A DNA stretch of 32,000 bases from Geotalea uraniireducens Rf4 (lineage in GTDB: Bacteria; Desulfobacterota; Desulfuromonadia; Geobacterales; Geobacteraceae). Of this stretch, positions 8,680 to 31,459 are shown piece after piece. The stretch's first letter is position 1; every line of letters begins with the position of its first letter. The position numbers and the translations under genes are program-made. The notes below the pieces were generated by a model. The model saw only the letters and a program-made list of their open reading frames with translations. It ran no database searches and had not been told where the DNA came from. Where the stretch lies: contig NC_009483.1 of the NCBI RefSeq assembly GCF_000016745.1, positions 2,580,001 to 2,612,000 of the forward strand. The letters are read 5' to 3'.

Positions 8680-8703
8680 CCATCAACCATCTACCATCTA
8701 CCG
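8680..8703 (-). repeat. Heptad array, family 1: aaaCGG TAGATGG TAGATGG TTGATGG (minus-strand reading)
   Basis: The plus strand reads CCATCAA CCATCTA CCATCTA CCG. The hrpB TAG stop (8698-8700) lies inside the first unit. The array fills the 28-nt gap between the convergent M23 and hrpB genes. Confidence 0.8.
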
Positions 8704-11226
8704 TTTCTTCGTATGCCGCGTCGGCGCGGCATTCCATGGATCATCCGGCCAGGGATGTTTCGGATAGCGCCCCTTCAGTTCCTTTTTTACTTCCGGATAG
8801 ACTGAATTCCAGAAGCTTCTCAGGTCACGGGTTACCTGGATCGGCCGACGAGCTGGCGACAGCAGGTGAAGAACAACGGGAACCGTACCCCTCGCCAGCG
8901 TCGGGGTGTCGGCCAAACCGAACATTTCCTGCAACTTGACCGCAAGCACCGGCGGACCGTCCTGCGCATAATCGAGGGAAATCCTTGATCCGCTGGGAAC
9001 GACAATATGGGTCGGCGCCTCCCCACCCAGCATGCGCTGTTGCTCCCAACTCAACATATTCTTCAGAGGTGAGAGGATGTCGAGGTTCGACAACTGTGTC
9101 AGAGTTTTAATCCCCGCCAGATACGGACCGAGCCACGCCTCAAGACTTCTGCCAAGATGCTCGATCGTGAGGTCCGGCCACCCTTCATCCGGGAAACAGC
9201 GGGCGATGAAGCAAACCCTGGACCGAAACTGCACCGCCTCCTGCGTCCAGTTGAGGGATGCCAACCCCTGTCCCTCGCTGATGCCCTGCAAAAGTGCGGC
9301 AGTCGTCTCATCTGCTGACGGGGTGATCTGCCGGCTGTCTAAAACAATGGCACCGAGGCGTTCCTCCTCACGGGCGACAACCCGTCCCTGCCTGCCGTCC
9401 CAGACAACCAGCCGCTGCCAGGCGATATCTCCGGCGCATTCTTTCCGTATCATATCGATGTTCAAGGCACTGGCCAGATGGATCACCCCATCGCCCCTTT
9501 CACCACCCTCCATGGCGACCGCCACGACGAAGGGGTTATCGCCCAAGGCGCTCCGTTCGGACAGCTTGCCGCCACGGCCATTGACCAAAAGATAGCGAGC
9601 CGATCCGGGTTCGCGTTGCCGGGCTATCCGGTCGGGATAGGCCCAGGCAAGGAGAAGGCCGGCCGTCTCTACGGAGCATGGCAGGAAAGAATCCTTGATC
9701 CCCAGGATGGAGCGAAGCTGGCGGGATACCCGGTCAACGGCACGGCAGGCAGTTGAATCGACACCATCCGGCATCGCACCGCCCCCCCCTTTTTTGCGCC
9801 ATTCGCCAAGCGCCTCTACCCTGTCCAGCATGTCACTGTCGCTTACCGGCCTATGACCAGAGGAAAAGGTGTATCTAAAGATGTCCCGTTCCGTCAGCAG
9901 GGCGGCCATATCGCAGGCCTGTGTCCCATACCCCCTCCTCCCCCCCTCGACAAGGAGATGGGCAAGACGTGGATGGACCGGCAACCCGGCCATTCGCCGC
10001 CCCGATTCGGTAATCAGTCCCTGCCGATCAAGGGCGCCAAGCCTTTTCAGCAAGGCGCGCCCCTCGGCGAGTGCCGCAACTGGCGGCGGATCAAGCCAGG
10101 CCAGGCTTGCAGCATCGCCTACCCCCCAAAGAGCCAGATCAAGGGCGAACCCGGCAAGGTCTGATGTGCAAATTTCCGGCGCAGCATAGGGGATGAGAGT
10201 TGTCTGAATATGCTCTGTCCAGAGACGGTGACATATTCCCGGCCCCAGCCTTCCCGCCCGGCCGGCCCGCTGGGTAGCGGAGGCGGCAGACACCCGCACT
10301 GTGACGAGACGGTTCAGTCCGCTGGCGGGATCAAAGCGGAGCTGGCGGCAGAATCCGCTGTCGATCACCACACGCACTCCCTCGATGGTCAAACTCGTTT
10401 CGGCAATATTGGTGGCCAGCACCACTTTACGGCGGGAAGCTGGTAGAATCGCCTTCTCCTGGGCATCGAAGGGAAGGTCGCCAAAGAGTGGACAGATAAG
10501 TGGCGATTGTCCATCGCCAGAGTTTTCGAGGAGCCGCTGGCAACGGCGGATTTCCCCTGCACCGGGGAGGAAAACGAGAATGTCGCCCTCCGTTTCATTA
10601 AGTGCCCGATGAACGGCAGCGGCTACCGTTTCAGGGAGCCGCCCTTCCGCCTCGCGGGGGAGATAACGCAGGTTGACGGGGAAAGTGCGCCCCGCACTGG
10701 TTATCAGCGGGGCGTTGCCCAGGAGGGCCGCAATGGGGGCGGCATCAAGGGTCGCCGACATGACGACGATCTTCAGGTCCTCACGCAGACCCTGCTGCGC
10801 GTCCCGGCAGAGAGCTAACGCAAGGTCGCTGTGCAGGCTCCGTTCGTGGAATTCATCGAATATCACCACCCCGACACCGGCCAGGCCAGGGTCTGTCTGG
10901 AGCCGTCGGCTGAGAATCCCTTCCGTGACAACTTCGATGCGCGTTGCGGCAGAAACCTTCCTCTCAAAGCGAATGCTATAGCCGACCGTCTTTCCCACCT
11001 CTTCCCCCAAAAGGGAAGCCATCCAGCGGGCCGCATTGGTGGCAGCCAGGCGGCGCGGTTCGAGCATCAGGATTTTTTGATTATTGAAGGAGGAATCTGC
11101 CAGCAGGGCCAGCGGCACCCGGGTGGTCTTGCCGGCGCCGGGAGGAGCCTGGACGACAATTGCGGAGTGGGTTTTTACGGCTGTCAGAAATTCGGGAAGA
11201 ATTTCATCGATCGGAAGGCGGTTCAT
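8698..11226 (-). CDS. hrpB: ATP-dependent RNA helicase HrpB (DEAH-box)
   Basis: 842 aa with PPGAGKTT (motif I), DEFHER (DEAH variant), SATL and the QRAGRAGR motif, plus a long HrpB-type C-terminal domain. Confidence 0.95.
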   Translation of the reverse strand: MNRLPIDEILPEFLTAVKTHSAIVVQAPPGAGKTTRVPLALLADSSFNNQKILMLEPRRLAATNAARWMASLLGEEVGKTVGYSIRFERKVSAATRIEVVTEGILSRRLQTDPGLAGVGVVIFDEFHERSLHSDLALALCRDAQQGLREDLKIVVMSATLDAAPIAALLGNAPLITSAGRTFPVNLRYLPREAEGRLPETVAAAVHRALNETEGDILVFLPGAGEIRRCQRLLENSGDGQSPLICPLFGDLPFDAQEKAILPASRRKVVLATNIAETSLTIEGVRVVIDSGFCRQLRFDPASGLNRLVTVRVSAASATQRAGRAGRLGPGICHRLWTEHIQTTLIPYAAPEICTSDLAGFALDLALWGVGDAASLAWLDPPPVAALAEGRALLKRLGALDRQGLITESGRRMAGLPVHPRLAHLLVEGGRRGYGTQACDMAALLTERDIFRYTFSSGHRPVSDSDMLDRVEALGEWRKKGGGGAMPDGVDSTACRAVDRVSRQLRSILGIKDSFLPCSVETAGLLLAWAYPDRIARQREPGSARYLLVNGRGGKLSERSALGDNPFVVAVAMEGGERGDGVIHLASALNIDMIRKECAGDIAWQRLVVWDGRQGRVVAREEERLGAIVLDSRQITPSADETTAALLQGISEGQGLASLNWTQEAVQFRSRVCFIARCFPDEGWPDLTIEHLGRSLEAWLGPYLAGIKTLTQLSNLDILSPLKNMLSWEQQRMLGGEAPTHIVVPSGSRISLDYAQDGPPVLAVKLQEMFGLADTPTLARGTVPVVLHLLSPARRPIQVTRDLRSFWNSVYPEVKKELKGRYPKHPWPDDPWNAAPTRHTKKR

Positions 11227-11239
11227 AATAAGGGATGGG

Positions 11240-11917
11240 TCAAAACAGGCGGCTCAGCCCCTGACAATCGATGCCGACCAGGGAATCAACCACCCGAAAT
11301 GCACCCGTAAGCCTCTCCTCCGGGTAGCTGTTGGCAACAGCGAGGACCTTCAGGCCGGCGCTGGTTGCCGAGGCAATGCCGGCAGGGGTGTCTTCGATGG
11401 CAAGACAATTCCCGGCAATTATCCCCATGTCGGGAAAAACTGCCGCCAACCTTTCCACAGCAAGGAGATAGCTCTCCGGATCAGGCTTGCTTGCCGCCAC
11501 CTCATCAGCAGTAACCATGGTGTCGAAGGCGTCGGTAATCCCGAGTTGTTTCAGGATAGGATAAATGTCGCCAGAGAGGGCACCGCTGCACAGGCCAAGG
11601 GGCAAATCCCCCTGAACGGAGCGAATCAGCTCGACCACCCCCGGGTACGGCTTTACGCCGGAAGCAATGATCCTGTTGAAGGCAGCGGCTTTCTTTTCAA
11701 TCAACGACTTCAACTCCTCAGCGCCAATCATTTTATTCCCGGCCCGGAACGCCTCGCGGAAAGCATCGCGGTCATCGAAGCCGATGTAATGGCGGAGATA
11801 TTCATCCCAGGAATAACCGAACCCAAGAGGCACGAGCACCTCCTGAAACGCCTTATAGTGCAGCGGTTCAGTATCGACAATGATCCCGTCAAAATCAAAG
11901 ACGACAGCGGAAAGCAT
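11240..11917 (-). CDS. HAD-IA family hydrolase (beta-phosphoglucomutase-like phosphatase)
   Basis: The FDFDGIIVDTE motif I, motif II (CSG) and IEDTPAGI motif are present. GGAGGT lies upstream of the ATG. Confidence 0.85.
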   Translation of the reverse strand: MLSAVVFDFDGIIVDTEPLHYKAFQEVLVPLGFGYSWDEYLRHYIGFDDRDAFREAFRAGNKMIGAEELKSLIEKKAAAFNRIIASGVKPYPGVVELIRSVQGDLPLGLCSGALSGDIYPILKQLGITDAFDTMVTADEVAASKPDPESYLLAVERLAAVFPDMGIIAGNCLAIEDTPAGIASATSAGLKVLAVANSYPEERLTGAFRVVDSLVGIDCQGLSRLF

Positions 11918-11998
11918 TATTAAACCTCCAATTTACCATGATGCTTCAAAACCTAGGAGCCTGTCGGGTCTGAACTTGCGGCAATTTTCGATAATTTG

Positions 11999-12805
11999 TC
12001 AGAACTTGCCGACTAGCACAAGACCAGCCGCGTCGCCGGAAACCAGCGGAGCCAGAGTGACATTGCGTCTCGAAGCGTGGTAGTTTGTGACAACCCTGCC
12101 GCAGAGTTCACCGATTGCGGCGCCGAGAACAACGTCGCTGGCCCAGTGCTTATCCTGATACATGCGCGAGAAACCGACAAAGGCAGCGGCAGAATAATAG
12201 GACAATTTGAGGGTCATGCTCTCCGAAGTTGCCGCCAGCACGGACGCCATGGCAAAAGAGCTGGACGTATGCATGGAAGGCATGGAATCATAGTCCCCTT
12301 TAAACTGGAACGGCTTGAAATCCCCTTTACCCGCGCCTGTAAATGGCCGCCCCCTGCCGATCCCCTCTTTAAGCAGAAACGTCGTCGCGTCGGCGAGAAG
12401 AACAGCTTCCCCCATCATCTCACCGATGGACCGGTATTGGGGCGAATCGGCGACAACCCCTCCGCCATAGACGGCGGCAGCAATACCCAGATGAAGGAAC
12501 GGATTACCCAGCACATTCCCGGCATCGGCGGCCTTGTCCAGGTTGCGGCTTTTCACCCCCTGAAGCTTTGTCCTTATGTCGTCGTCAAAAACATAGGTCA
12601 ATCCCACGGCCCCGGCTACGGCCAGGGTCCCGACAAGGCCATGATTATCCGTATCCAGCGGCGTCCTGGCAACATCAACCGCCTCTTCCCCCAGACGGAC
12701 GATCTCCCCCTTTATGACAGCAGTGCTGTTAAAGAGATTATCTTCGGCCAAAGCAGGAGAAACAATCAGGAACAGCAGAAACATGACCGGCAAGAGACAA
12801 CGCAC
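11999..12805 (-). CDS. PAP2-family (type 2 phosphatidic acid phosphatase-like) secreted or membrane phosphatase
   Basis: The KEGIGRGRP, PSMHT and SRMYQDKHWASDV tripartite PAP2 motifs are present. The GTG start at 12805 is preceded by GAAGGAG, and a signal peptide follows. Confidence 0.85.
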   Translation of the reverse strand: MRCLLPVMFLLFLIVSPALAEDNLFNSTAVIKGEIVRLGEEAVDVARTPLDTDNHGLVGTLAVAGAVGLTYVFDDDIRTKLQGVKSRNLDKAADAGNVLGNPFLHLGIAAAVYGGGVVADSPQYRSIGEMMGEAVLLADATTFLLKEGIGRGRPFTGAGKGDFKPFQFKGDYDSMPSMHTSSSFAMASVLAATSESMTLKLSYYSAAAFVGFSRMYQDKHWASDVVLGAAIGELCGRVVTNYHASRRNVTLAPLVSGDAAGLVLVGKF

Positions 12806-12874
12806 TTCAACTCCTTCAAGGTTTCACTAAAACAACAACTCCCCATGCGATGAACAACAACCACCCGACGTCAG

Positions 12875-14065
12875 TTACGTCCGGCGACGAAATTCCAGTG
12901 AGCCCTTGATCTCCTGCCAGCGCCCCCGATCCTCATCAGACATTTTATCGAAATATTCGAGGACGAAGGCGGTAAAGATCGAGACAAAAAAGGCGGTAAC
13001 CGTGGCAAGGATGACGATCAGCGACCTTTTCGGCTTGCTCTTCTTCATGGGGACTACAGCTTCATCCAGCACCTGGATGGACGACGAATCCTTGGCCTCG
13101 GAAATCTTCGCCACCTCGTACTGCTTTTTCAACTGCTCGAAAATCGCTTCCTGGGTTTTCAACTCCCGCAGCTTGCGTGCGTATTCGAGGCCCAGATTGG
13201 GGACATTGCCGACCGAAGGGATCACGTCGCCGGCGCCGTTACCGGAGAAAGCTCCCAACTGGTTGCGCAGTTTGCCTATCGATACCTGGAGCAGCTTGAC
13301 TTCCGGGCTTTCATCGGTCTGGTAGCTTTTCAGGGAGGCGAGCTGGACCTCCTTGGCGACGATCTCCGCCCTCAGCCTGGCGATACCCTCGATACTGGCC
13401 GCCGCCTGCGAATCGACCTTGAATATCTTGTTTTTTTCCTGGAACGCCTTTAAATCGTCTTCAGCCCGCGCCAGATCCTGCTTGACCACAGCAAGACGCT
13501 TTTCCAGGAAAGCCCGTTCAGTACCGGCCTTGGTCAGGTTCAACTGCACGCTTCGGATGCCCAGCTCCTCGACCATGACATTCGCCAGGCTGGCGGCCAT
13601 CCTGGGGTCCCTGCTCTCGGCGGTAATGGTAATGATCCCGTCCTTTCCCGCCTGGTACTTCACCACCCCTGCCAACGCATTTCTCGTGTCGTCAAGGGTA
13701 TTTGTCTTGAACCCTTTCTGCAGATCGAGGCGCTTGATCACAGCATCGGCAACCGAGCGGCTCTTCAGAATGCCCATATAGAGGTCGGCGCTCCCTCCCA
13801 GGGCCCCACCCGCCAGCCCGGCAAGACCGCCCATCTGGCCGAGAAGCGCCGAAACCCCACCGCCGCCCACGTCCTTCTGCGGCGGAAGCAGACGCGCCGT
13901 TGCCGTATAGATGTTCGGCAGAAAAAGGCAGTATATTATGGAAATAACGGCAACTGAAACAGAAAGCTTGACTATCATTCCCTTGCGCTTGATGACCACC
14001 CGGAGGAGGTCGAGGAGGTTTATCTCCTGCTCTTCCAGCTGCACTTCGTTTACACGTTCATCCAT
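12875..14065 (-). CDS. Polysaccharide chain-length determinant (Wzz/GumC-type) protein without a kinase domain
   Basis: An N-terminal Wzz motif region (INLLDLLRVVIKRKGMIV + TM) is followed by a long coiled-coil periplasmic region and a C-terminal TM. No Walker motifs are present. Confidence 0.85.
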   Translation of the reverse strand: MDERVNEVQLEEQEINLLDLLRVVIKRKGMIVKLSVSVAVISIIYCLFLPNIYTATARLLPPQKDVGGGGVSALLGQMGGLAGLAGGALGGSADLYMGILKSRSVADAVIKRLDLQKGFKTNTLDDTRNALAGVVKYQAGKDGIITITAESRDPRMAASLANVMVEELGIRSVQLNLTKAGTERAFLEKRLAVVKQDLARAEDDLKAFQEKNKIFKVDSQAAASIEGIARLRAEIVAKEVQLASLKSYQTDESPEVKLLQVSIGKLRNQLGAFSGNGAGDVIPSVGNVPNLGLEYARKLRELKTQEAIFEQLKKQYEVAKISEAKDSSSIQVLDEAVVPMKKSKPKRSLIVILATVTAFFVSIFTAFVLEYFDKMSDEDRGRWQEIKGSLEFRRRT

Positions 14066-14077
14066 GCCGGTATCCTT

Positions 14078-16924: not shown

Positions 16925-17038
16925 CAATCCGTCCCTGATAGTTTTTTGATAATCCAGTGACAAGAAAGCAGGTCACCGGGTAATTCCTTCACTCAGCAAA
17001 TTCCTTATGAACGCTGATATCTGCAAACGGCTCTAAAC

Positions 17039-17072
17039 AAAAAAACAGCAATCCTTACGAAAAGGATTACTG
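17039..17072 (-). terminator. Intrinsic terminator after the tRNA-Gln/tRNA-Glu unit
   Basis: The minus strand reads CAGTAATCCTT-ttcgt-AAGGATTGCTG followed by T7, starting 14 nt after the tRNA-Glu CCA end. Confidence 0.85.
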
Positions 17073-17085
17073 TTCTTATTGATGG

Positions 17086-17160
17086 TGGTGATCCCAAGGG
17101 GACTTGAACCCCTGTTACCGACGTGAAAGGCCGGTGTCCTAACCGCTAGACGATGGGACC
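17086..17160 (-). tRNA. tRNA-Glu (anticodon UUC), CCA encoded
   Basis: The reverse complement is GGTCCCATCGTCTAGCGGTTAGGACACCGGCCTTTCACGTCGGTAACAGGGGTTCAAGTCCCCTTGGGATCACCA. The anticodon loop is CTTTCAC, and the sequence closely resembles the E. coli tRNA-Glu layout. Confidence 0.93.
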
Positions 17161-17198
17161 TGAATATCGGTGAATGGTGAATAGTGAATGGTGAATGG
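17161..17198 (+). repeat. Heptad array, family 1: TGAATAT CGG TGAATGG TGAATAG TGAATGG TGAATGG (plus-strand reading)
   Basis: Read directly in the 101-nt spacer between the two tRNAs. It is followed at 17228-17255 by two copies of CTTCACTTTT(T)CAT, which is partly complementary (GTGAA/TTCAC). Confidence 0.8.
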
Positions 17199-17261
17199 TC
17201 CCCAAAAACTTTCATATCCCGCTCACACTTCACTTTTCATGCTTCACTTTTTCATTTTTAA

Positions 17262-17335: not shown

Positions 17336-17349
17336 ACAGGTAGACGAGA

Positions 17350-17378
17350 TATATAGCAAAGTGCGCCGTTCCAGTCAA
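17350..17378 (-). promoter_or_regulatory. tRNA-Gln/Glu promoter (TTGACT-N17-TATATA with TGn extended -10)
   Basis: The minus strand reads TTGACTggaacggcgcactttGcTATATA and ends 14 nt before the tRNA-Gln 5' end. Confidence 0.6.
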
Positions 17379-18767: not shown

Positions 18768-18786
18768 AGAAAAACCTCGTAAAATG

Positions 18787-18903
18787 GGGATCAGGGATCG
18801 GGGAACTGGGACCAGGGACTTGGGATCGGGGATCAGTAACAAACTCTAATCCGCCAGTTCCCAGTTCCCAGTTCCCAGTTCCCAGTTCCCAGTTCCCAGT
18901 TCC
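18787..18903. repeat. Inverted pair of 7x7-nt arrays. Left: GGGATCA GGGATCG GGGAACT GGGACCA GGGACTT GGGATCG GGGATCA. A 19-nt spacer follows. Right: (CAGTTCC)x7
   Basis: Counted base by base. The left array spans 18787-18835 (degenerate), the spacer 18836-18854, and the right array 18855-18903 (perfect). It fills almost the whole korA-korB spacer. Confidence 0.95.
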
Positions 18904-18906
18904 CAA

Positions 18907-19962
18907 TCAATAATATTTCCTGATCTGCTCAAACAGTTCTTCAGGAGTCGGAAGCGATCCGGCTCCCGGTGGTCTACCGTAAAAATAAACCTCCGCATCC
19001 CTGGCGACGGAAAGTCGGACGTCTTCAACCATCTGGCCGGTGTTGAGCTCGATATCAAGCACCTTTTTACATTGTTGCGTCGCCTGCAGCAAAGCCTTTT
19101 CCGGAAATGGAAAAAGGGTTACGGGTCGTAGCAATCCGACCTTGAGTCCCGCATCTCTCGCCATCAGGACGGCAGTTTTGACAATCCGCGCCGTGGAGCC
19201 GAAGGCAGTGACCAGCAGTTGGGCATCGGCAGTCTCGAACTCTTCCCAGCGGGTCTCTCTTTCCTTCAGTTCCTGATACTTTGCATGCAGCCGCCAATTA
19301 TGGGCTTCCAGTTCACCATCGCCGAGAAAGAGGGATTTGACGACCCGCTGTTCACCGTCACCCTTCCCCCTGACCGCCCAATCCTTGGGAGGAAGTTTTG
19401 TTTCCGGCCTTCTGTTGGCGACAAGGGCTTCCTTCATCTGTCCCACGACCGAATCACCCAGGACCATGGCCGGCATCCGGTAAATGTCGGCAAGGTCAAA
19501 AGCAAGCATGGTGAGGTCGTACATTTCCTGAACCGATGCAGGCGCCAGCACAACGATATGATAACCACCGTGACCGCCTCCCTTGACTGACTGGAAATAG
19601 TCGGCCTGTGAAGCATCGATGCCGCCGAGTCCGGGGCCGGAACGGGAAATATTGACGATGACGCCTGGCAACTCGGACCCTGCCATATAAGAAATTCCCT
19701 CCTGCTTAAGGGAAATCCCGGGGCTCGATGACGATGTCATGGCACGTACGCCGGTTGCGGACGCGCCCAAAAGCATATTGATGGACGCAATTTCGCTTTC
19801 GGCCTGAATGAATTCTCCGCCGAGCTTGGGCAATTCACGGGAAAGGTATTCCGGGATGTCGCTCTGGGGAGTGATCGGATAGCCGAAATAGTAGCGACAG
19901 CCGGCCTCTATGGCAGCCATTGCAACGGCCTCGTTCCCTTTAACAAACAAACGCTTTGCCAA
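18907..19962 (-). CDS. korA: 2-oxoacid:ferredoxin oxidoreductase, alpha subunit
   Basis: ...[28 protein letters not shown]... is typical of the POR/KOR alpha N-terminus. I chose the TTG at 19962 ([11 protein letters not shown]) because GGAGGT lies 5 nt upstream; the ATG at 19992 has no SD. Confidence 0.88.
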
Positions 19963-20479: not shown

Positions 20480-21049
20480 ATGGCCTCAACATTACTGGAA
20501 CTTACTGCCAACATCGTCTCTTCACATGCATCTGTATCAGAGATGTCCGGTGAAGAACTACTTCAGGAACTGCAAAAAGTTTATTCTGCATTGCAAAAAC
20601 TTGAAACCGTCCCTGTAGAAACTGGTGAACAAGCTGAAGTGAAAACTCCGGCAATCTCCCTTAAGAAAGCCTTTCAACCCGACCAGGTATCCTGTATGAT
20701 CTGCGGCAAGACCGGCATGAAGACCCTTGCCCGCCACCTGGCACAGGTACACAATATGAAGCCGGGTGCATACAGAAAGCAGTTCGGCATTCCCAGCACC
20801 CAGGCACTCACCGCCAAGAATTTTTCAGAAGCCAGAAGAAAAATGGCCCAGGACAGGGGACTTGCCGATAATCTGGCAAAAGCCAGAGCCGTAAGAGCTG
20901 CAAATATAAAGGCAAAAACAGCCGCACCGGAAAAAGCGGCCAAGGCAGCAAAAACAGCTCCCAAGGCAGCTCCAAAAGCAGCAGCAAAAGCTGCGCCTAA
21001 AGCAAAACCGGTAACGGCAAAAGCCGCACCAAAGGCAAAAAAGGCATAG
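20480..21049 (+). CDS. mucR: MucR/Ros-family zinc-finger transcriptional regulator with a Lys/Ala/Pro-rich histone-H1-like C-terminal tail
   Basis: ...VSCMICGKTGMKTLARHLAQVHNMKPGAYRKQFGIPSTQALTAKNFSEARRKMA... aligns by eye to the Ros/MucR C2H2 domain. AAGGAGGA lies upstream of the ATG. The tail is KAKTAAPEKAAKAAKTAPKAAPKAAAKAAPKAKPVTAKAAPKAKKA. Confidence 0.88.
   Translation: MASTLLELTANIVSSHASVSEMSGEELLQELQKVYSALQKLETVPVETGEQAEVKTPAISLKKAFQPDQVSCMICGKTGMKTLARHLAQVHNMKPGAYRKQFGIPSTQALTAKNFSEARRKMAQDRGLADNLAKARAVRAANIKAKTAAPEKAAKAAKTAPKAAPKAAAKAAPKAKPVTAKAAPKAKKA

Positions 21050-22243: not shown

Positions 22244-22246
<3 letters not shown>
21257..22246 (+). CDS. bioB: Biotin synthase (radical SAM)
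   Basis: CPENCSFCAQS forms the radical-SAM cluster motif. The typical BioB length and YHHNLET motif are present. Confidence 0.95.
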
Positions 22247-23059
<813 letters not shown>

Positions 23060-23089
23060 TGACACAAAGCCGGTAAATGGAGACAGACC

Positions 23090-24457: not shown

Positions 24458-24461
24458 ATGC

Positions 24462-24496
24462 AAAAAAAGGGTGGCTGATAAACAGCCACCCTTTTT
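24462..24496. terminator. Bidirectional intrinsic terminator shared by bioA (+) and the convergent glycine-zipper gene (-)
   Basis: A7-GGGTGGCTG-ataaa-CAGCCACCC-T5. Confidence 0.85.
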
Positions 24497-24505
24497 AAAT
24501 CTGTT

Positions 24506-24630
24506 ATTCCAATTCCAAATCAAGGCGCTATCTTCGTTGGCTCGTCTTCGGCTCCTCAACGTACTATCTGTACGCCTTCGTCGCCTCACTCCTCGCCGCC
24601 TTGATTTCATCCTTGATTTGAAATTGGAAT
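24506..24630. repeat. 125-nt element: 20-bp terminal inverted repeats (1 mismatch) around a strand-asymmetric C/T-rich core
   Basis: ATTCCAATTCCAAATCAAGG at 24506-24525 pairs with CCTTGATTTGAAATTGGAAT at 24611-24630. The right arm carries a direct duplication of CCTTGATTT. The core, read on the minus strand, is purine-rich with units such as AAGGCGG, CGAGGAG and ACGAAGG. Confidence 0.75.
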
Positions 24631-24646
24631 TAGAAGTAACGCTTCC

Positions 24647-25039
24647 TTAGAATTTACCCCTGAAAAACTCAGCCATGACGATTATCGGTGTCTGCCCCTT
24701 GGAATTTGGTTCCTGAATGTCAGGGATAATTGTCGGCATGGAAAACCTCACTTTACCATTTTCCATCTCGGCAAGTGACCTGGTGCTTTTTACCAGACCG
24801 TAACCGGCGCCCAACAGGACACCAGCCGCAGCACCATAACCTATACGATCCAGGTGATCGGCCGGCTTACGGGTGAATGCAATAAGCGCCGTTCCGATCA
24901 GGGTCCCCGCCAAACCACCATACAAGGAATCTTCGAAAATCTCTTTAAATGCGTTTTCCGCTGCAAAACAAGGAGCAGTCATGCTGGTTAGCAGAACTGT
25001 GGCTGTCAGTATCACCATCGTCCGTTTAATTCTGTTCAT
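24647..25039 (-). CDS. Small secreted or outer-membrane glycine-zipper protein (hypothetical)
   Basis: A signal peptide (MNRIKRTMVILTATVLLTSMTAPCFA) is followed by two G/A-rich zipper segments (GGLAGTLIGTALIA, GYGAAAGVLLGAGYG) and a C-terminal Phe. Confidence 0.65.
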   Translation of the reverse strand: MNRIKRTMVILTATVLLTSMTAPCFAAENAFKEIFEDSLYGGLAGTLIGTALIAFTRKPADHLDRIGYGAAAGVLLGAGYGLVKSTRSLAEMENGKVRFSMPTIIPDIQEPNSKGQTPIIVMAEFFRGKF

Positions 25040-25321
25040 CTGGTACTCCTTTTGAAAGAGTATGGCTCAGTCATTTAACATTAAACAGCAACAAACGAGC
25101 CAAAACCACCAGATCGAACCATCAAACTATAACACAGCTATTTCATTGATATATTCCCAGACCAAAACCATCATTCGAAGTAATTCCCCGCCTTATCATT
25201 CTTGATTGCTACAAAATCAACCGTGATATTGCTGAAACATCAGAGCCATGCGAGCAATTTAGAGTGGAAGAACAATGAGTTAGCCATAAGCCAGTTGTTT
25301 GACCATAGTGTTGCAAATTCG

Positions 25322-27949
25322 CTACAGATGCTTCAACCTCTCCCTGACCATACCCAGTTCGTCATCCCGACTTACAACCTGACCGTTCAGTCGTGCTTTT
25401 AAGACTACATCCAGAAGCTCCCGATAGAGTGGCCCGGCTGGCACCCCGAGTCGTTTAAGGTCTTCACCGGAAATCAGGCAGCGGACACCCTGCAATTGGG
25501 TAAAATAGAGTGAGATGCATTTTTTGGCATCGTCACTGCCGGTTTTCGCCATCAGATAGAGAAGAATCTCCACCGGCAGATCTTTCAACCAGAAATATAT
25601 TTCGCTTTTTGCTACCCGCCCCCCCCGCGCCACCTTCATTTCCATGATCTCCAGCACCTCTTCACCCCGCCTGCGCATCTCGAAGAGCTTCTCCTTGTAA
25701 TGCTCGTTAACGGCCAGCCGCGTGCAAGCCCCCCACAACATATCGTCAGTCAGGGACTCGCATAGGGTAAGGAAATATACCACCCAACGCTCATAGGCCC
25801 GATCGAGAAAGAGGAGATCAAACCAGGAAATGATTTTCCGGGCGTCTTCCAAAACAGTGCGTGTCCGTGCGGTCATCTGGAGTTCAGGATGAATGAAGCG
25901 CAAAAGGCCGAGGGCCGACAACCTCTCCACCGCTTTGAACGGTTCTTTTTCACGCAGAATATAAACGAGTTCGGTCAAAAGGCGCTTACCGCCGAGTTTC
26001 TCCAGAAAATCCATTTTTACCGCATTCTTGATCAGGTTTTCCGTATGCTTGGCAATATGAAAATCAAGCCGCTGCTCAAAGCGAATGGCGCGGAACACCC
26101 GGGTCGGATCTTCAACAAAGGAGAGATTGTGCAGCACGCGAATAAGCCGGTCCTGCAAGTCGCGGTGCGCGCCGAAATAGTCGATGAGCAGGCCGAATTC
26201 AGAATTGTTCAGGCGGATGGCAAGGGTATTGATGGTGAAGTCGCGACGGTAGAGATCCATCTTGAGGGAGGAACGTTCGACAGTCGGAAGAGCGCCCGGC
26301 GAAACGTAATACTCCAGCCGGGTGCTGGCCACATCGACCTTGAATCCGTCGGGAAAAACGATCACGGCCGTGCCGAATTTCTCGTGGCTCTTGACACGGC
26401 AGCCGAACTCAGCGGAAAAGGTCTCGGCAAACAGGATGCCATCCCCCTCCACAGTCACATCTATGTCATAATTTTCGTTATTCAACAGGAGGTCCCGGAC
26501 AAAACCGCCGACCGCGTAAACAGGCAGGTCCAGACGGTCCCCGACCCGACCCAGATCACGCAGCACCTGCAATACCGTCGGCGAGATATGCTTGTTCATC
26601 AAGCCGGATATTTCCTTGCTGCGCAGCGGCGTTGCGTCCCTTGCCAGGTCGTATAGGGAGTCGCCACTGTACAAGTAACGCAAGATATCGGTACGGGTCA
26701 CGACGCCCACCAGGTTGCCGTCGGCCAAAACCGGCACGAGACGCCGGTTCCGGCCGACGATATAGTCTTGGATATCGCTGATCGGGGTGGACGGTTCAGC
26801 CGACATGAACTCCGAATGCATGTAGTCGCTGACTGGCACATGGCCGAGATTGTGGTAGAGAGACTTTTCAACAATACGCCGGGAAATGACCCCGACCAGC
26901 CGTTCCCCGTCCATCACCGGCATGGCGTTGACGTTATACCTGGTCAAGAGCTCGCGGGCCTCCTCGATGGTGGCATCGGCGGAAATGATTTTCACCGGTG
27001 ACGACATGATATCGCTTGCAACACGCCGTGGATTTACCCTGTTCCGCAAAATCTCTTCCAGCTTTTCCAGCACCTGGATCAGAGTCAGGTCCTTCACCGT
27101 AGCAGAAGCAGCCGAGGCGTGTCCCCCTCCACCGAATTCGTGAAGGATCTCACTCATATTCACCTCGGGGACGCGGCTCCTGGCGACGATGTAGACCCGG
27201 CTCCCCATGCCGACCACGAGAAAGAGGGCCTGAAGGTTCTCCATGTCCCGCATCATGTGTGCAAGAGCGGCGATGTCCCCGATATAGTAGTCGACTGACG
27301 CATGGGCGATAGAGACATCGACACCGTTCAGATTGGTCGTCTTCAGTGATTTCAGCAGGTCGTTTAGCAGGGAGACCTGCTCTACGGTCAGCTCCTGGGT
27401 GATGAAATCGGCAACGGTGTTCAGATTGGCGCCCCGCTCCAAAAGCCATGCGGCAGCATGATAGTCATCTACCGTCGTGGAGGGAAAGGTGAGGCTCCCG
27501 GTATCTTCGTAGATGCCGAGCATCATCAGCGTCGCCTCTGTGGCATTCACCTCGATCCACTTCTCTCGTAGTATGCCGGTAAGGATGGTGGTCGAGGAGC
27601 CGCTCACGCGGATTACCCCGCCAGTGGAAGCGATGTCGCCCGATGATTCGGGGTGGTGGTCATAAATATGGATTTCAAGACCGGGCCGGTGCAGAATCTC
27701 GGCAAACCTGCCGATGCGGGAAGAGTGTTGGCAATCCACCAGGATCAGTCGCGTTACCTGGTCAAGATCGAGATCTTTGAAGCGGGTGAAGTTGAGCACG
27801 TAGCTGGTGGATTTAAGAAAAAAGTCGCGCATGCTCTTTTCCTGGGCGCCGGAAAACACCATAGCCGCATCGGGATAGAGCTTTTTGGCGGCCACCATGG
27901 CCCCCAGACAGTCGAAATCAGCATTAACGTGGGTGGTAATTACGTCCAT
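25322..27949 (-). CDS. Multidomain DHH/DHHA1 - CBS pair - polyA-polymerase-family tRNA nucleotidyltransferase (CCA-adding enzyme type)
   Basis: The N-terminus has HVNADFDCLGA and the DHH motif (IYDHHP). The middle has tandem CBS domains (IMSSPV..., DYMHSEF...). The C-terminal half has the nucleotidyltransferase head GGFVRDLLL...DIDV...RRDFTIN. Confidence 0.88.
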   Translation of the reverse strand: MDVITTHVNADFDCLGAMVAAKKLYPDAAMVFSGAQEKSMRDFFLKSTSYVLNFTRFKDLDLDQVTRLILVDCQHSSRIGRFAEILHRPGLEIHIYDHHPESSGDIASTGGVIRVSGSSTTILTGILREKWIEVNATEATLMMLGIYEDTGSLTFPSTTVDDYHAAAWLLERGANLNTVADFITQELTVEQVSLLNDLLKSLKTTNLNGVDVSIAHASVDYYIGDIAALAHMMRDMENLQALFLVVGMGSRVYIVARSRVPEVNMSEILHEFGGGGHASAASATVKDLTLIQVLEKLEEILRNRVNPRRVASDIMSSPVKIISADATIEEARELLTRYNVNAMPVMDGERLVGVISRRIVEKSLYHNLGHVPVSDYMHSEFMSAEPSTPISDIQDYIVGRNRRLVPVLADGNLVGVVTRTDILRYLYSGDSLYDLARDATPLRSKEISGLMNKHISPTVLQVLRDLGRVGDRLDLPVYAVGGFVRDLLLNNENYDIDVTVEGDGILFAETFSAEFGCRVKSHEKFGTAVIVFPDGFKVDVASTRLEYYVSPGALPTVERSSLKMDLYRRDFTINTLAIRLNNSEFGLLIDYFGAHRDLQDRLIRVLHNLSFVEDPTRVFRAIRFEQRLDFHIAKHTENLIKNAVKMDFLEKLGGKRLLTELVYILREKEPFKAVERLSALGLLRFIHPELQMTARTRTVLEDARKIISWFDLLFLDRAYERWVVYFLTLCESLTDDMLWGACTRLAVNEHYKEKLFEMRRRGEEVLEIMEMKVARGGRVAKSEIYFWLKDLPVEILLYLMAKTGSDDAKKCISLYFTQLQGVRCLISGEDLKRLGVPAGPLYRELLDVVLKARLNGQVVSRDDELGMVRERLKHL

Positions 27950-28752
27950 CAGGCGACCGTAAACGCCGCATAGGCAACGACCTGGCGGTTATCGCCGGTC
28001 ACATCGCCGCTCGTGGCATAGCGCACCAGCTTCGCCTGTGTTGCCCCCAGTTCATTGACCGCTACGAGCATGACCGTTGCGGGGATCACTCCGCACATGG
28101 TGATGTCTTTTTCGCGGCAGACCCGCAAAAGTCCCTCGGGATTCAACGCCAGTATCTCGTTGATGGCATGTTCATCCTTCTCTTTCGCCATCACAGCCGA
28201 TTCGTAATGGGTCATGTCCGAACTGGCAACTATCAGCACCTCTTCTCCATATTCCCGTATCGCCCGGGCAATACCTGAACCGAGCGACTTGCAGCTCGCA
28301 TAGTCGCCGAAGCCGAGACAGAGAGGGACAATGGTCACATCGGACCGGACGAACTGGAGAAAGGGGACCTGGACTTCGAGGGAGTGCTCGAAATGATGGG
28401 CGGAGGTTTCCTCCTCCACCAGGGGGGCATGTTTTTTGATTAACGCGGAAAGGCGGCTGTTTATGGAGACGGCGCCGAGCGGGGTAAGCCATTTGCCAGC
28501 GGGATAGATGGCTGCCCTGGCGCCGACACCCTGGTGATTGGGGCCCAGGATGATAACGGTCGGCGGCACTTCGACAGAGCCGTAGAGCCTGCCGGCAACC
28601 GCTCCCGAGTACATGTAGCCCGCATGGGGAGCAATCACCCCCAGGACCTTTTCCCGGAAAGTTTCCACCGTAACCATCCGTTCCAACTGGGCACGGAGTT
28701 CTTTCGGGTCGTTCGTGTAAAACTGTCCTGCCACTGCCGGTTGACGAATCAT
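27949..28752 (-). CDS. amrB: AmmeMemoRadiSam system protein B (Memo-like)
   Basis: RQPAVAGQFY, PHAGYMYSG, HSLEVQVPFL, SSDMTHY and MCGVIP motifs of the Memo family are present. The start was set to the ATG at 28752 (AAGGAG 6 nt upstream). The stop overlaps the downstream start as ATGA. Confidence 0.88.
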   Translation of the reverse strand: MIRQPAVAGQFYTNDPKELRAQLERMVTVETFREKVLGVIAPHAGYMYSGAVAGRLYGSVEVPPTVIILGPNHQGVGARAAIYPAGKWLTPLGAVSINSRLSALIKKHAPLVEEETSAHHFEHSLEVQVPFLQFVRSDVTIVPLCLGFGDYASCKSLGSGIARAIREYGEEVLIVASSDMTHYESAVMAKEKDEHAINEILALNPEGLLRVCREKDITMCGVIPATVMLVAVNELGATQAKLVRYATSGDVTGDNRQVVAYAAFTVA

Positions 28753-28767
28753 GGCACACTCCTTGGA

Positions 28768-28894
28768 AGCGGTGAATGGTTGATAGTCGATGGTCGATGG
28801 CAATACAATAAACATTGTAATCCATAAACCATCGACCATCAACCATCGACCGATTTTACCATCGACCATCGACCATCGACCATCGACCGATTTA
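28768..28894. repeat. Three family-1 heptad modules. One is on the plus strand: CGG TGAATGG TTGATAG TCGATGG TCGATGG. Two are on the minus strand: aaatCGG TCGATGG TTGATGG TCGATGG TTTATGG, and TAAatCGG (TCGATGG)x4
   Basis: Counted base by base. The G-rich arm spans 28768-28800. A 28-nt loop contains the inner palindrome TACAAT-aaac-ATTGTA. The C-rich arrays span 28822-28856 and 28859-28894. The scpB TAA stop (28892-28894) is part of the last header. Confidence 0.95.
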
Positions 28895-29461
28895 TTCCTC
28901 CAGCGGCAGATCCTGCTGATCACCGTATGGGTTGACCGGCGCAAGCTCCTGAATTTCCTTCAACGTCGGCAGACTCGACAGGTCCTTCAGATTGAACAGT
29001 TCCAGGAACTCCCTGCTGGTCCCGTAGATGAGCGGCTTGCCGGGGATGTCCTTTTTGCCGAGGATCCGCAGCAGCTTTTTTTCCAGCAGAGTTTTCAGCA
29101 CCCCTCCCGAATCGACACCGCGCAGGTATTCCACTTCGGCACGGGTAATGGGTTGGCGGTAAGCGATGATCGCCAGCGTTTCCAGGGCGGACGGGCTGAA
29201 CTTGACGGTTTTGCTTCGGGTCAGACGCCGCAGATAATCGGCATTCTCCGGGCGACTGCGAAACTGATAGCCGCCGGCAACCTCATCCAGGAATATCCCC
29301 CGCTCTGCCTGACGGTAATCCTCCTTCAGGGCTTCGACCGCAGCGCGGATATCTCCCCGCTCGTGCTCTTCCAGGACCGAGCAGAGCCTGTCGAGGGTTA
29401 TCGGCAGGTCCGAAACGAAGATCAGGCTTTCGACAATGGATTTAAGACCGGCCGGCGACAT
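28892..29461 (-). CDS. scpB: Segregation and condensation protein B
   Basis: ...IVESLIFVSD.P......L........ and the winged-helix pair layout typical of ScpB are present, directly after scpA. I preferred the ATG at 29461 (GGAGGAGG upstream); ATGs at 29467 and 29491 are also in frame. It overlaps the scpA end by 20 nt. Confidence 0.85.
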   Translation of the reverse strand: MSPAGLKSIVESLIFVSDLPITLDRLCSVLEEHERGDIRAAVEALKEDYRQAERGIFLDEVAGGYQFRSRPENADYLRRLTRSKTVKFSPSALETLAIIAYRQPITRAEVEYLRGVDSGGVLKTLLEKKLLRILGKKDIPGKPLIYGTSREFLELFNLKDLSSLPTLKEIQELAPVNPYGDQQDLPLEE

Positions 29462-30263
29462 GGTCATCCTCCTCCCCGGCCGTCCCATCATCAGCCTCGA
29501 CTGCGACAGGCATGATCCAGATGGTGCCGAGGCTCCTGGCCTGGCTGATCCTGATCATCTTCAGCTTGCACAGCTCGAGGATGGCGAGAAAGGTAACCAC
29601 CAGGCCATCCCGGGTAACTTCGGAAAGAAACAGTGATTCGAAGGGGACCGCTTCCTTCCCCTCCAGCAGGGAAAGGACCTCGGCAATTTTGTCCGCGATC
29701 GAGACGCCGTCGGCGCCCACTTCGTGAAAATTCTCGACGGAAACCTTGGCCAGCACCCGCTGAAAGGCCTCTATCAGCTCAAACAGTTCGACCTCGGTCG
29801 GATCCTCTTCCGCCTCGCATGTGGCAAGATCGGCAGATGGGAATTTGCGGGCAAAGATGTCCCGGCCCAGAAGTTCGCGCTGGCCGAGCATTACGGCGGC
29901 CTCCTTGTACTTCTGATATTCCAGGAGTCTGCGCACCAGTTCGGCGCGGGGGTCCTCCTCCTCTTCTTCTTCGGCTTCTTCTTCCACGGAGGGGGGGAGC
30001 AGCATCTTCGATTTGATCTGGATGAGGGTCGCTGCCATGACCAGGAATTCACCGGCTATATCAAGATTGAGATCCTTCATCAGGTCGATATAATCCAGAT
30101 ACTGCCTGGTGATGGCGGCAATGGGGATGTTATAGATATCCACCTCATTCTTCTTAATGAGATGAAGAAGGAGGTCGAGCGGGCCTTCAAACTCTTCAAT
30201 ACTTACCTGGTAAGCATGATCATAACCATCGGTAAACAACGAGTTTTGCTTGGCTGAATCCAT
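29442..30263 (-). CDS. scpA: Segregation and condensation protein A (kleisin)
   Basis: FEGPLDLLLHLIKKNEVDIYNIPIAAITRQYLDY is the canonical ScpA N-terminus. Confidence 0.9.
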   Translation of the reverse strand: MDSAKQNSLFTDGYDHAYQVSIEEFEGPLDLLLHLIKKNEVDIYNIPIAAITRQYLDYIDLMKDLNLDIAGEFLVMAATLIQIKSKMLLPPSVEEEAEEEEEEDPRAELVRRLLEYQKYKEAAVMLGQRELLGRDIFARKFPSADLATCEAEEDPTEVELFELIEAFQRVLAKVSVENFHEVGADGVSIADKIAEVLSLLEGKEAVPFESLFLSEVTRDGLVVTFLAILELCKLKMIRISQARSLGTIWIMPVAVEADDGTAGEEDDHVAGRS

Positions 30264-30278
30264 GGGTGTGAGGTTACT

Positions 30279-30327
30279 CCGTTTTCCTTTGTCCTCGGTC
30301 CTTTATCCTCGGTCCTTCGTCCTGGGT
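30279..30327 (-). repeat. Heptad array (NNNNAGG type): ACCCAGG ACGAAGG ACCGAGG ATAAAGG ACCGAGG ACAAAGG AAAACGG (minus-strand reading)
   Basis: Seven units (49 nt) start 4 nt after the trpS TGA and end 15 nt before the scpA ATG. The plus strand reads CCGTTTT CCTTTGT CCTCGGT CCTTTAT CCTCGGT CCTTCGT CCTGGGT. Confidence 0.9.
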
Positions 30328-30331
30328 TTGA

Positions 30332-31315
30332 TCACACCTTGAGGGCCGCCCTGACATCCTTCATGGTTTGGCCTGCTTCTTCCGTCGCCTTGTGCGCCCC
30401 CTCGGCGAGAACATCCTCCACCAGGGACGGCGTGGCGGCAAGCTCCTCACGCTTGGCGCGGAACGGAGAAAGGGTATCGACAACGGACTGGGCAAGGATT
30501 TTCTTGCAGTCCACGCATCCTATCTGTGCCCCGCGGCAGGAAGCGACGATCTCGGCCCGCTTCTCTTCGGCAACATAGAGGCTGTGGAGGGTAAAGGCCA
30601 CGCAACGGTCCGGTTCACCCGGGTCGGTCCGCAACGGGCGCTGCACGTCGGTAACCATGGACATGACCTTTTTCCGCGTCTCTTCGGCGTTATCTGAGAG
30701 GAAAATGGCGTTGCCGTAAGATTTGCTCATCTTGCGCCCGTCGAGCCCCAGCACTTTCGGGGTCTCCGTCAGAAGGGCCGCCGGCTCCGGAAACACCTCG
30801 CCGTAGAGATAATTGAAGCGGCGGGCGATCTCCCGCGTAATCTCCAGATGGGGGATCTGGTCCTGGCCGACCGGTACCCGCGCCGCCTTGTAGACGATGA
30901 TGTCCGAGGCCATCAGCACCGGATAGCCGAGGAAGCCGAAGGTGGACAGGTCCTTAGCCGTCAGGTTTTCCTGCATCTCCTTGTAGGTGGGATTGCGCTC
31001 CAGCCAGGAAACCGGCGTAATCATGGAGAGTATCAGGTTGAGCTCAGCATGCTGCGGCACCTGACTCTGGACGAAAATGGTGCTCTTTTCCGGGTCGATG
31101 CCGAATGCGAGCCAGTCGAGTACCATCTCGCGGATGCTGTCCCGGATACCCTCGGTATTGGCATATTCGGTGGTCAGGGAATGCCAGTCGGCAGCGAAGA
31201 AGAAACACTCGAACTCCTGCTGCAACTTCAACCAGTTGGAAAGGACCCCGTGAAAATGCCCGAGATGCAGCTTACCGGTTGGTCTCATACCACTGACAAT
31301 ACGCTTATTTTCCAT
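30332..31315 (-). CDS. trpS: Tryptophan--tRNA ligase
   Basis: GMRPTGKLHLGHFHG (HIGH) and KMSKS are present. At 327 aa it is typical of bacterial TrpRS. Confidence 0.95.
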   Translation of the reverse strand: MENKRIVSGMRPTGKLHLGHFHGVLSNWLKLQQEFECFFFAADWHSLTTEYANTEGIRDSIREMVLDWLAFGIDPEKSTIFVQSQVPQHAELNLILSMITPVSWLERNPTYKEMQENLTAKDLSTFGFLGYPVLMASDIIVYKAARVPVGQDQIPHLEITREIARRFNYLYGEVFPEPAALLTETPKVLGLDGRKMSKSYGNAIFLSDNAEETRKKVMSMVTDVQRPLRTDPGEPDRCVAFTLHSLYVAEEKRAEIVASCRGAQIGCVDCKKILAQSVVDTLSPFRAKREELAATPSLVEDVLAEGAHKATEEAGQTMKDVRAALKV

Positions 31316-31438
31316 TTAATAGAGACTCCTTTTCAGTAGTTGTCCAAAGCAGGGTACGTCACTACCATCCACCATCCACCATCCACCATCCACCATCCAC
31401 CATCCACCATCCACCATCCACCATCCACCGCCGACCAT
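31316..31438 (-). CDS. Candidate 40-codon Trp-rich upstream ORF/leader peptide ([40 protein letters not shown])
   Basis: I translated this by hand; it is below the 60-aa cutoff of the ORF track. The ATG at 31438 is preceded by AAGGCGG at -10 to -4. The frame passes through the (TGGATGG)x9 array. Its TAA (31316-31318) directly abuts the trpS ATG (TAAATG), and the trpS SD AAAAGGAG lies inside it. Translation is unproven. Confidence 0.3.
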
Positions 31439-31459
31439 CGACCGCCTTTACCGCCTTTA
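31365..31459 (-). repeat. Heptad array, family 1: TAAaggCGG TAAaggCGG TCGATGG TCGGCGG (TGGATGG)x9 (minus-strand reading)
   Basis: Nine perfect CCATCCA units on the plus strand at 31365-31427 were verified unit by unit. They are followed by CCGCCGA CCATCGA and two copies of the 9-mer CCGCCTTTA. The M50 protease TAA stop (31457-31459) lies in the first header. Confidence 0.97.

Follow-up and report, generated by a model that had tools for sequence, protein, structure and literature searches.

Why should short tandem arrays with a seven-base period stand against the ends of genes, in one spacer after another, along a single stretch of a bacterial chromosome? The question is raised by seven arrays of TNNATGG units in 32,000 nucleotides of Geotalea uraniireducens Rf4 (contig NC_009483.1, positions 2,580,001 to 2,612,000), hereafter the window. 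A first-pass annotation of this DNA, made from its letters, had argued for common descent or a common mechanism instead of slippage and had concluded that no known class of feature fits the arrays. We consider it probable that they are lineage-specific members of the heptamer simple-sequence repeats (SSRs), made and remodeled by slippage and kept only in unconstrained gaps. They are not a new class. They are of a known kind, represented by the Gmet_H4 elements of Geobacter metallireducens, by the GGGAATC arrays of Xanthomonas and by the STRR-type heptamer repeats of cyanobacteria; what differs is the unit, TNNATGG.

The seven-base period stands well above chance. Tandem Repeats Finder returned 25 rows in the window, which form 19 clusters, and 11 of the 19 have period 7, compared with 8 period-7 clusters in total over 20 shuffled windows (about 0.4 per shuffle). 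At one mismatch or fewer, TNNATGGTNNATGG has 24 matches in the window against 2.11 +/- 1.48 in shuffles, and 24 was reached by 0 of 100 shuffles. The program placed TNNATGG-type arrays at 8680-8702, 17169-17199, 22248-22319, 28776-28800, 28822-28888 and 31364-31446, and further heptad types at 17229-17259, 18786-18836, 18854-18905 and 30285-30327. These are head-to-tail 7-nt units in at least three copies, above chance and above other periods, which is what makes a heptanucleotide SSR. Nearly all array nucleotides (473 of 478) fall outside coding DNA, although the noncoding share of the window is 11.6%, and heptad arrays make up 13.6% of that noncoding DNA; the G+C content of the window is 50-58%. 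With neighbors identified from the open reading frame (ORF) listing and from tRNA and family searches, the features are as follows.

8680-8703, minus strand: array (i), aaaCGG then TAGATGG TAGATGG TTGATGG.
17161-17199, plus strand: array (ii), tgaatatCGG then TGAATGG-type units.
17222-17261, minus strand: purine-rich partner array, ATGAAAA AGTGAAG CATGAAA AGTGAAG and so on, the 5' arm of the tRNA-spacer hairpin.
18776-18836, plus strand: C-rich arm of the korA-korB spacer, TAAAATGG header and 7 GGGAYCN units, the 3' arm in the kor transcript.
18854-18909, minus strand: G-rich arm of the korA-korB spacer, (GGGAACT)x7.4, the 5' arm of the korA-korB hairpin.
22244-22321, plus strand: array (iii), bioB TAA and AGCGG, then TTGATAG TCGGCGG TTGATGG TCGGCGG TTGATGG TTGATGG and decayed units.
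28768-28800, plus strand: array (vi), CGG then TGAATGG TTGATAG TCGATGG TCGATGG, the C-rich 3' arm of the scpB-memo hairpin.
28822-28856, minus strand: array (v), TAAAATCGG then TCGATGG TTGATGG TCGATGG TTTATGG, the 5' arm of the scpB-memo hairpin.
28859-28894, minus strand: array (iv), scpB TAA and ATCGG, then (TCGATGG)x4.
30285-30331, minus strand: trpS-scpA heptads, AGGACGA AGGACCG AGGATAA AGGACCG AGGACAA AGGAAAA.
31365-31459, minus strand: array (vii), M50 TAA, (TAAAGGCGG)x2, TCGATGG, TCGGCGG and (TGGATGG)x9.
Neighboring genes: M23 peptidase (plus) and hrpB (minus); tRNA-Gln and tRNA-Glu (minus); three 2-oxoacid:ferredoxin oxidoreductase subunits (minus); bioB and bioD (plus); and an operon of M50 protease, trpS, scpA, scpB and a Memo-like protein (minus).

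All seven arrays, with the strings and positions first reported for them, were reproduced from the raw sequence, including (TGGATGG)x9 and the 12-mer ATGGTCGGCGGT. Four units are present in (ii), (iv), (v) and (vi), three in (i), at least six in (iii) and 11 in (vii). CGG directly precedes the first unit in 7 of 7 arrays; of the longer header (T)AAAnCGG that had been proposed, (ii) and (vi) have only this CGG and neither TAA nor AAA. Arrays (iii) and (vii) have in common both the odd unit TCGGCGG and the 12-mer. We take the seven arrays to be a single family whose foot is specific to the lineage; a set of unrelated coincidences is a less plausible explanation than a common origin or mechanism.

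Contact with stop codons had been reported at four genes, and the gene calls agree. The hrpB stop TAG (8700-8698, minus strand) is the start of the first unit of array (i), which lies inside a 28-nt convergent spacer, 10 nt past the stop of the M23 peptidase gene. The bioB TAA (22244-22246) opens the header of array (iii), which occupies the spacer as far as the bioD start at about 22329; the scpB TAA (28892-28894) and the M50 TAA (31457-31459) open the headers of (iv) and (vii). Gene calls also bear out the spacing given for the other heptad types: (GGGAACT)x7.4 begins about 2 nt beyond the korA/vorB stop TGA, and the AGGAC-type heptads begin 4 nt past the trpS stop and extend to the scpA ribosome-binding site. 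Array (vi) ends 4 nt short of the memo Shine-Dalgarno sequence. Array (ii) directly adjoins the 5' end of tRNA-Glu and not a stop codon; in the precursor of tRNA-Gln and tRNA-Glu it forms the C-rich 3' arm.

Orthologous spacers in relatives indicate how the arrays change. Metagenomic relatives closer than Geotalea sp. SG265 are present, with ScpB at 85-98% identity. We compared L001-L004 (Logan assemblies, ScpB 97% identity), L005 and L006 (GCA_027356255.1 and an ENA contig, 91%), L007 (JGI metagenome, 86%), L008 (Geotalea sp. SG265, 81%) and L249 (JGI metagenome), the last with 96.1% DNA identity to window 26574-32000 (5.4 kb). Spacer by spacer, the comparison reads as follows.

M50-trpS spacer: 11 heptads in the window; 4 in L249, with (TAAAGGCGG)x2, TCGATGG, TCGGCGG, TCGGCGG, TCGGTGG; a single header and 4 units in L001; TAACGGCGG and 2 units in L005; no array in L007 and L008.
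scpB array (iv): (TCGATGG)x4 in the window, against (TCGGCGG)x4 and TCGATGG in L249; TCGATGG TTGATGG TTGATGG TCGATGG in L001; changed in L005, where an inserted gene splits scpB from memo; the scpB stop within a TTGATGG unit in L007; no array in L008.
trpS-scpA spacer: AGGAC-type units, 6 in the window, 4 in L249, 4 in L001 and about 5 in L005; GGCTGAA/GACTGAA x5 and GGGATGA x8 in L007; none in L008, where the spacer is 15 nt.
bioB-bioD spacer, compared in the window, L001, L005 and L008 (the L249 and L007 contigs do not reach it): 6 units and 3 decayed ones in the window; 3 in L001; 4 in L005; proto-units only in L008.

The same spacers are thus occupied in close relatives, but the number and type of units differ. 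The copy-number differences that the first-pass annotation had advised looking for are clearest after M50, in the series 11, 4, 4, 2 and 0. L001-L004, whose ScpB is identical, have identical arrays wherever their contigs overlap (L004 ends within the hairpin). The korA-korB and tRNA-Gln/Glu spacers bear heptads even in L008, with drifted units. Persistence at a site with turnover of units is, on such comparisons, the behavior of slippage-prone simple-sequence repeats. The earlier preference for common descent or mechanism instead of slippage can therefore be kept only in half: the shared foot supports one family, but the marks of slippage are visible, and the number and type of units differ between genomes at 96% DNA identity.

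Do the arrays supply the stop codons of the genes before them, as had been claimed? The M50 and bioB stops keep one aligned position throughout the genomes compared, the array-free ones (L007, L008) included, and so are ancestral and not supplied by the arrays. A stop within a unit is used only at hrpB in the window and at scpB in L005 and L007, where the TGA is inside a TTGATGG unit. Units bearing TGA or TAG would bring every frame to a stop within 21 nt, so that an array in G-rich sense could replace the last codons of a gene harmlessly, as at those three places. The length of ScpB varies among its closest homologues (189-194 amino acids; the window scpB is at 28892-29491), and array dynamics may reshape its C-terminal tail.

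The answer to our opening question may lie in the gaps themselves. In the array-free genome L008 the corresponding spacers are 41, 15, 86 and 28 nt, and they hold unit-like seeds, TAG CGG CATTTATG TCAATGG after bioB and GGTGGGGTTGGTG after M50; these proto-units suggest that arrays originated in place. Since ancestral operon spacers were 15-86 nt, an array seeded in one of them must touch a stop codon or a tRNA end. We propose a model where a locus consists of an A-rich foot ending in CGG (TAAANCGG), often overlapping the upstream stop, and then about four heptads (range 3-11). Replication slippage or unequal exchange would make the array grow, shrink and homogenize in steps of 7 or 14 nt, and nowhere would it be kept but in the small gap that separates a stop codon (or tRNA end) from the ribosome-binding site of the next gene; survival limited to a short unconstrained gap would account for arrays abutting stop codons. 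Where two arrays converge, the G-rich one first and its complement second, DNA and transcript would fold into a long hairpin, a REP-like palindrome rather than a terminator. It is plausible that the arrays could play a role in the RNA processing, stability or translation of their neighbors.

Three further observations concern these spacers. In L005 a period-6 array (GGTTGA x8, 5184-5234) follows scpB in place of heptads and is itself followed by a canonical terminator; between scpB and memo a gene for a 756-aa Big_2/NHL-repeat protein has been inserted in opposite orientation (5554-7824), and remnants of arrays (v) and (vi) stay on the memo side. The M50-trpS spacer of L007 contains no heptads but has a 150-nt element whose long ends are inverted (GAATTCGTCAAAAG ... 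CTTTTTACGAATTC, 7957-8108) and which may be a further dispersed palindromic repeat. In the window, 46 nt (TAGTGACGTACCCTGCTTTGGACAACTACTGAAAAGGAG..., 31316-31364) separate array (vii) from the trpS start; they are nearly constant in L001, L005 and L249, and such constancy beside a variable array suggests a constrained trpS leader or promoter element.

Repeats of this kind have been described before, and the closest are in the same family of bacteria. In G. metallireducens, 49 'four tandem heptanucleotide repeats' were annotated as Gmet_H4##, function unknown (Aklujkar et al. 2009, PMC2700814), which bears out the mention, in the first-pass annotation, of heptanucleotide repeats in Geobacter genome papers. 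Their alignment (Additional file 6 of that paper) has a foot such as TAAAATCGG, TAAAGACGG, AAAAGGCGG, TGAAGGCGG or TAGAGGCCGG, then four GGGACCR heptads and an A-rich tail, with many adjacent (+)/(-) pairs (PMC2700814). The likeness extends to a Geobacteraceae host, a foot that is A-rich or resembles a stop and closes with C(C/G)GG, G-phased heptads next to it (four in Gmet_H4##, 3-11 in the window), dispersal by dozens and many convergent (+)/(-) pairs. TAAAATCGG is identical in the header of array (v), in Gmet_H403 and at 3510-3518 of L257, a contig from the same sample as L249, and the window arm at 18776-18836 is like the Gmet_H4## elements both in its TAAAATGG header and in GGGAYCN, which is nearly their unit. 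The differences are in unit and uniformity. The G. metallireducens unit GGGACCR (consensus GGGACCG/GGACCGG) has GGG, whereas TNNATGG in the seven arrays has GG; the Gmet_H4## copies are near-identical 45-mers found by BLAST, some of them intragenic, whereas the window copies have 3-11 units and are all intergenic. The seven arrays do not fit the Gmet_H4## unit consensus, which only the arm at 18786-18836 approaches, and no TNGATGG dimers were found in the supplements of the G. metallireducens paper (PMC2700814).

More distant systems obey similar rules. The study of Rehm et al. 2015 (PMC4692102) describes about 185 GGGAATC arrays per Xanthomonas genome, 89-93% of them intergenic and almost always nearest the 5' neighboring ORF, as well as GGGGA(C/T)T arrays in Nostoc. 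It counts 70-75 convergent inverted pairs per genome, gives four units as the preferred number and finds arrays between the same genes in two related species, differing in length and sequence. Stop-codon proximity, convergent pairing and the preference for four units are thus common to Xanthomonas, Nostoc and the window. The hosts are gamma-proteobacteria and cyanobacteria, however; their G3-G4 tracts form quadruplexes in vitro, unlike the GG of TNNATGG, and no conserved header is reported in the sections consulted (PMC4692102). In Beggiatoaceae, Cyanobacteria and Bacteroidetes, MacGregor 2015 (PMC4679880) found arrays where TAACTGA stands among other heptamers and where strains differ by 7-nt indels. 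These and the STRR repeats resemble ours in being intergenic tandem heptamers with mixed unit types per spacer, 7-nt strain indels and a patchy phylogenetic spread (PMC4679880), but the Beggiatoa sets lie mostly just upstream of start codons in 2-6 copies, and no header or hairpin pairing is described for them. According to Mrazek et al. 2007 (cited in PMC4679880), no long SSR is more abundant than heptamers in most prokaryotic genomes. The earlier view that no known feature class fits the arrays cannot stand beside Gmet_H4, with the same header and four heptads, and the Xanthomonas and Nostoc repeats, with the same stop proximity and convergent pairing.

How far does the unit itself reach? 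A scan for (TNGATGG)x3 in one-genome-per-species contigs, with 20 specified bases and about one chance match expected, matched at least 120 stretches. Among the matches listed are Bacteroidota, Cyanobacteria, Planctomycetota, Verrucomicrobiota, Acidobacteriota, Gemmatimonadota and other phyla; our cross-phylum counts rest on 80 listed loci (L128-L207) with 83 TNGATGG arrays. Among the other tandem repeats of these loci, period 7 is commonest (100 of about 270 clusters), with highly diverse units. That TNGATGG is a specially and universally favored unit was rejected, as the same listed genomes hold about 100 other, diverse heptad arrays; the period, not the unit, is what is special. A full-text literature search found no paper naming the TNGATGG unit; TTGATGG, TCGATGG, TGGATGG and their complements matched only primers and unrelated uses. 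Viral contigs scanned loosely for (TNNATGG)x3 gave only single scattered matches among the matches listed.

The header behaves differently. In metagenomes, TAAAN{1,2}CGG with two units gave 21 matches, including L249, where a rough estimate puts chance matches at about 15. Some 10 of the 21 are real arrays, and in about 8 of 17 distinct matches an ORF of 96 codons or more ends in the TAA. With matches so near chance, the idea of a header-plus-array module widespread across phyla was dropped, and the header is rare outside this lineage. On L257, two header-bearing heptad hairpins at 3500-3745, with headers TAAACCGG... and TAAAATCGG..., fill the tRNA-Ile/tRNA-Ala and tRNA-Ala/23S-side spacers. 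The tRNA pair suggests an rRNA-operon spacer, and if it is one, these elements would be transcribed very highly and must be removed in rRNA and tRNA processing. On a Bryobacteraceae contig, a Lon TAA is followed by AGGCGG, heptads and an inverted arm. A separate contig, L259, from a host of 64% G+C, has a near-perfect 40-bp hairpin of TGGATGG units (predicted, -87.7 kcal/mol) on the minus strand, within the 121 nt from the TAA (plus-strand 2874 to about 2754); on one side of it an ORF read as nusG ends, and on the other stands the ribosome-binding site of what is probably rplK, the next gene.

Several regularities weigh against slippage as a complete account. The foot TAAANCGG is common to arrays with different units (TCGATGG at 28856, GGGATCA at 18776), for which slippage gives no reason, and it recurs in another genus (Gmet_H403, Gmet_H439), which pure slippage does not explain. 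Nor does slippage give a reason for the preferred number of four units, the modal length among the matches listed (27 of 83). Across phyla, for arrays in the matches listed with an inverted partner no more than 150 nt away, the order is without exception G-rich array first and C-rich array second (14 versus 0, p = 1e-4). Finally, the placement argument predicts no orientation bias, yet among arrays of the matches listed that abut a stop within 7 nt, about 17 are in G-rich sense and 1 in C-rich sense by crude ORF calling. The unexplained foot, the G-then-C order and the four-unit mode keep two rival explanations alive, a mobile element and a cis-regulatory element. Avoidance of C-rich sense inside operons, through Rho loading, was tried as a separate idea and is unsupported, co-directional spacers having about 15 C-sense and 11 G-sense arrays in a crude ORF count.

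Repetitive extragenic palindromic (REP) sequences and bacterial interspersed mosaic elements (BIMEs) are short dispersed palindromes of intercistronic and 3' spacers, often right after stops, with a conserved foot by the stem. The REP foot is GTAG-like and tied to the RAYT transposase, and REP stems do not consist of tandem heptads. The first rival, which we judge unlikely, is that the header and heptad array, or the palindromic pair, form a small REP/REPIN-type element or a MITE (a miniature transposable element with inverted repeats) whose foot is read by a transposase, with slippage only after insertion. Such an element would account for a foot common to loci and unit types, with CGG before every array and TAAAATCGG at 28856 beside TAAAATGG at 18776, and for its presence on both palindrome arms, as in L257 (GAAAGCGG...CCGATTTT) and in the TAAGACGG arms of L001. 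It would also suit the identical 9-mers in the 49-copy, BLAST-similar G. metallireducens family, the TCGGCGG common to the bioB and M50 arrays and the very different contexts of the copies, the putative rRNA-operon tRNA spacers included. The paired arrays, as intercistronic palindromes with a foot, most plausibly behave like REP/BIME sequences. Against mobility, the foot is AAANCGG and not GTAG, palindromes occur at only three sites and 4 of 7 TNNATGG arrays are unpaired. None of the window copies shows a target-site duplication or a REP-type GTAG foot, and inspection of the flanks of the paired arrays found no direct duplication of the kind that marks a MITE. Among the listed genes of L001-L008 no Y1 transposase flanked by repeats was seen. 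No transposase lies beside the arrays in the gene-listed loci, and the sole transposase-like gene, which is in L007, has no array closer than about 6 kb. The arrays keep orthologous positions through speciation with no sharp-edged presence or absence, the proto-units of L008 being at the same spots, and a header of only 3-9 nt, A-rich, is what one expects past stop codons.

The second rival makes the arrays selected cis-regulatory elements: intercistronic hairpins acting in processing, stability or ribosome stalling, G-quadruplexes, or platforms for proteins such as IHF/HU, CsrA, S1 or Csp, which have been proposed for related repeats. This, too, seems to us improbable, although the predicted hairpins are very stable and lie exactly between cistrons or tRNAs. 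The scpB-memo spacer has a predicted fold of -66.2 kcal/mol (z = -7.3), with a stem of more than 30 bp from arrays (v) and (vi), and the korA-korB and tRNA spacers have z = -4.5 and z = -2.3. An inverted partner had been recognized for (vi); the tRNA-spacer and korA-korB pairs are convergent as well, giving three in the window ((v) with (vi), (ii) with 17229-17259, and 18786-18836 with 18854-18905). Similar purine-rich heptads, again with a predicted hairpin, are present in L008 between tRNA-Gln and tRNA-Glu, and the korA-korB spacer there also bears heptads. Selection would suit the strict G-then-C order and the modal four units, the number for an intramolecular quadruplex, and Rehm et al. 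2015 (PMC4692102) report transcript ends and starts above controls at such repeats. Canonical G3N4 quadruplex motifs do exist in the window, but only in the korA-korB arms (18786-18831 and 18860-18904); TNNATGG, with GG runs only, would make a weak two-tetrad quadruplex at best.

The variation between genomes speaks against such selection. Unit sequence and number vary freely between near-identical genomes, and arrays are missing in relatives with the same flanking genes. Unpaired arrays, the majority of the seven, fold weakly or not at all ((iii), z = -2.5; (vii), z = -1.3; (i), z = +0.5), the last two no better than shuffled sequence. Covariance models of Rfam at the gathering score matched only three tRNAs in the window and none of the arrays, and the cited papers report no phenotype or functional enrichment. 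Action as intrinsic (Rho-independent) terminators was rejected: the window has 33 terminator-like sites (a GC-rich stem-loop and at least 5 T in 8), and no array or array hairpin is among them. The clear terminators of this genome are elsewhere, for example at 24496-24464 and 17077-17041, and are ordinary A-tract/stem/T-tract hairpins.

A promoter-like string speaks for the same rival. On the memo strand, TTGATG-17-TACAAT lies at 28814-28842 (minus strand) and is mirrored at 28780-28809 (plus strand). Array (v) supplies the -35-like TTGATG from one of its heptad units, and in the hairpin loop upstream of memo is the -10-like TACAAT; the loop string ATTACAATGTTT, with TACAAT, recurs upstream of memo in L001, L249 and L005. 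Because memo in L005 is parted from scpB by the inserted opposite-strand gene, it needs its own promoter there.

More doubtful still is a third possibility, that the foot (TAAANCGG-like) is recognized by an enzyme, or by a DNA or RNA process, which seeds and polarizes heptad arrays. Seeding directed by the foot would explain why the same foot stands on unrelated units in two Geobacteraceae genera, why arrays start at gene ends by the 5' end of the G-rich strand and why the G-then-C order is fixed. If this were true, the arrays would be the footprint of an undescribed site-specific activity that generates or mobilizes repeats, and not of generic polymerase slippage.

That the arrays are independent microsatellites sharing a unit, their header due to chance or to an assembly artifact, is scarcely credible, for although heptad units elsewhere show extreme diversity and many unrelated phyla have TNGATGG arrays, the CGG foot is on 7 of 7 window arrays against 5 of 83 in other phyla among the matches listed (Fisher p = 1e-7), two arrays have TCGGCGG and a 12-mer in common, and the same arrays are present in independent assemblies of other samples. 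Ribosome tracks made of Shine-Dalgarno-like or ATG-bearing units were set aside, TCGATGG, GGGAACT and AGGACNN being too unlike one another for one motif.

On our preferred reading, slippage-made heptamers in short gaps, there are practical consequences. Annotators of Geobacteraceae genomes will meet such arrays, to judge from their 13.6% share of noncoding DNA here, and may find in them a source of assembly breaks and miscalled gene ends. As they change faster than their surroundings, they should be useful strain markers. After Xanthomonas and Nostoc, this is a third independent lineage with the same rules: a 7-base period, about four units, stop contact and convergent pairing. The header common to the window and G. 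metallireducens is a concrete handle on whether a specific protein or process underlies those rules.

One more repeat of the window should be told apart from the heptads. At 20949-21004, inside a ROS/MucR-like gene, a 12-nt unit (CAAAAGCAGCTC) is repeated 4.7 times, as it has counterparts in both L001 and L008; this is probably low-complexity coding sequence with no connection to the arrays.

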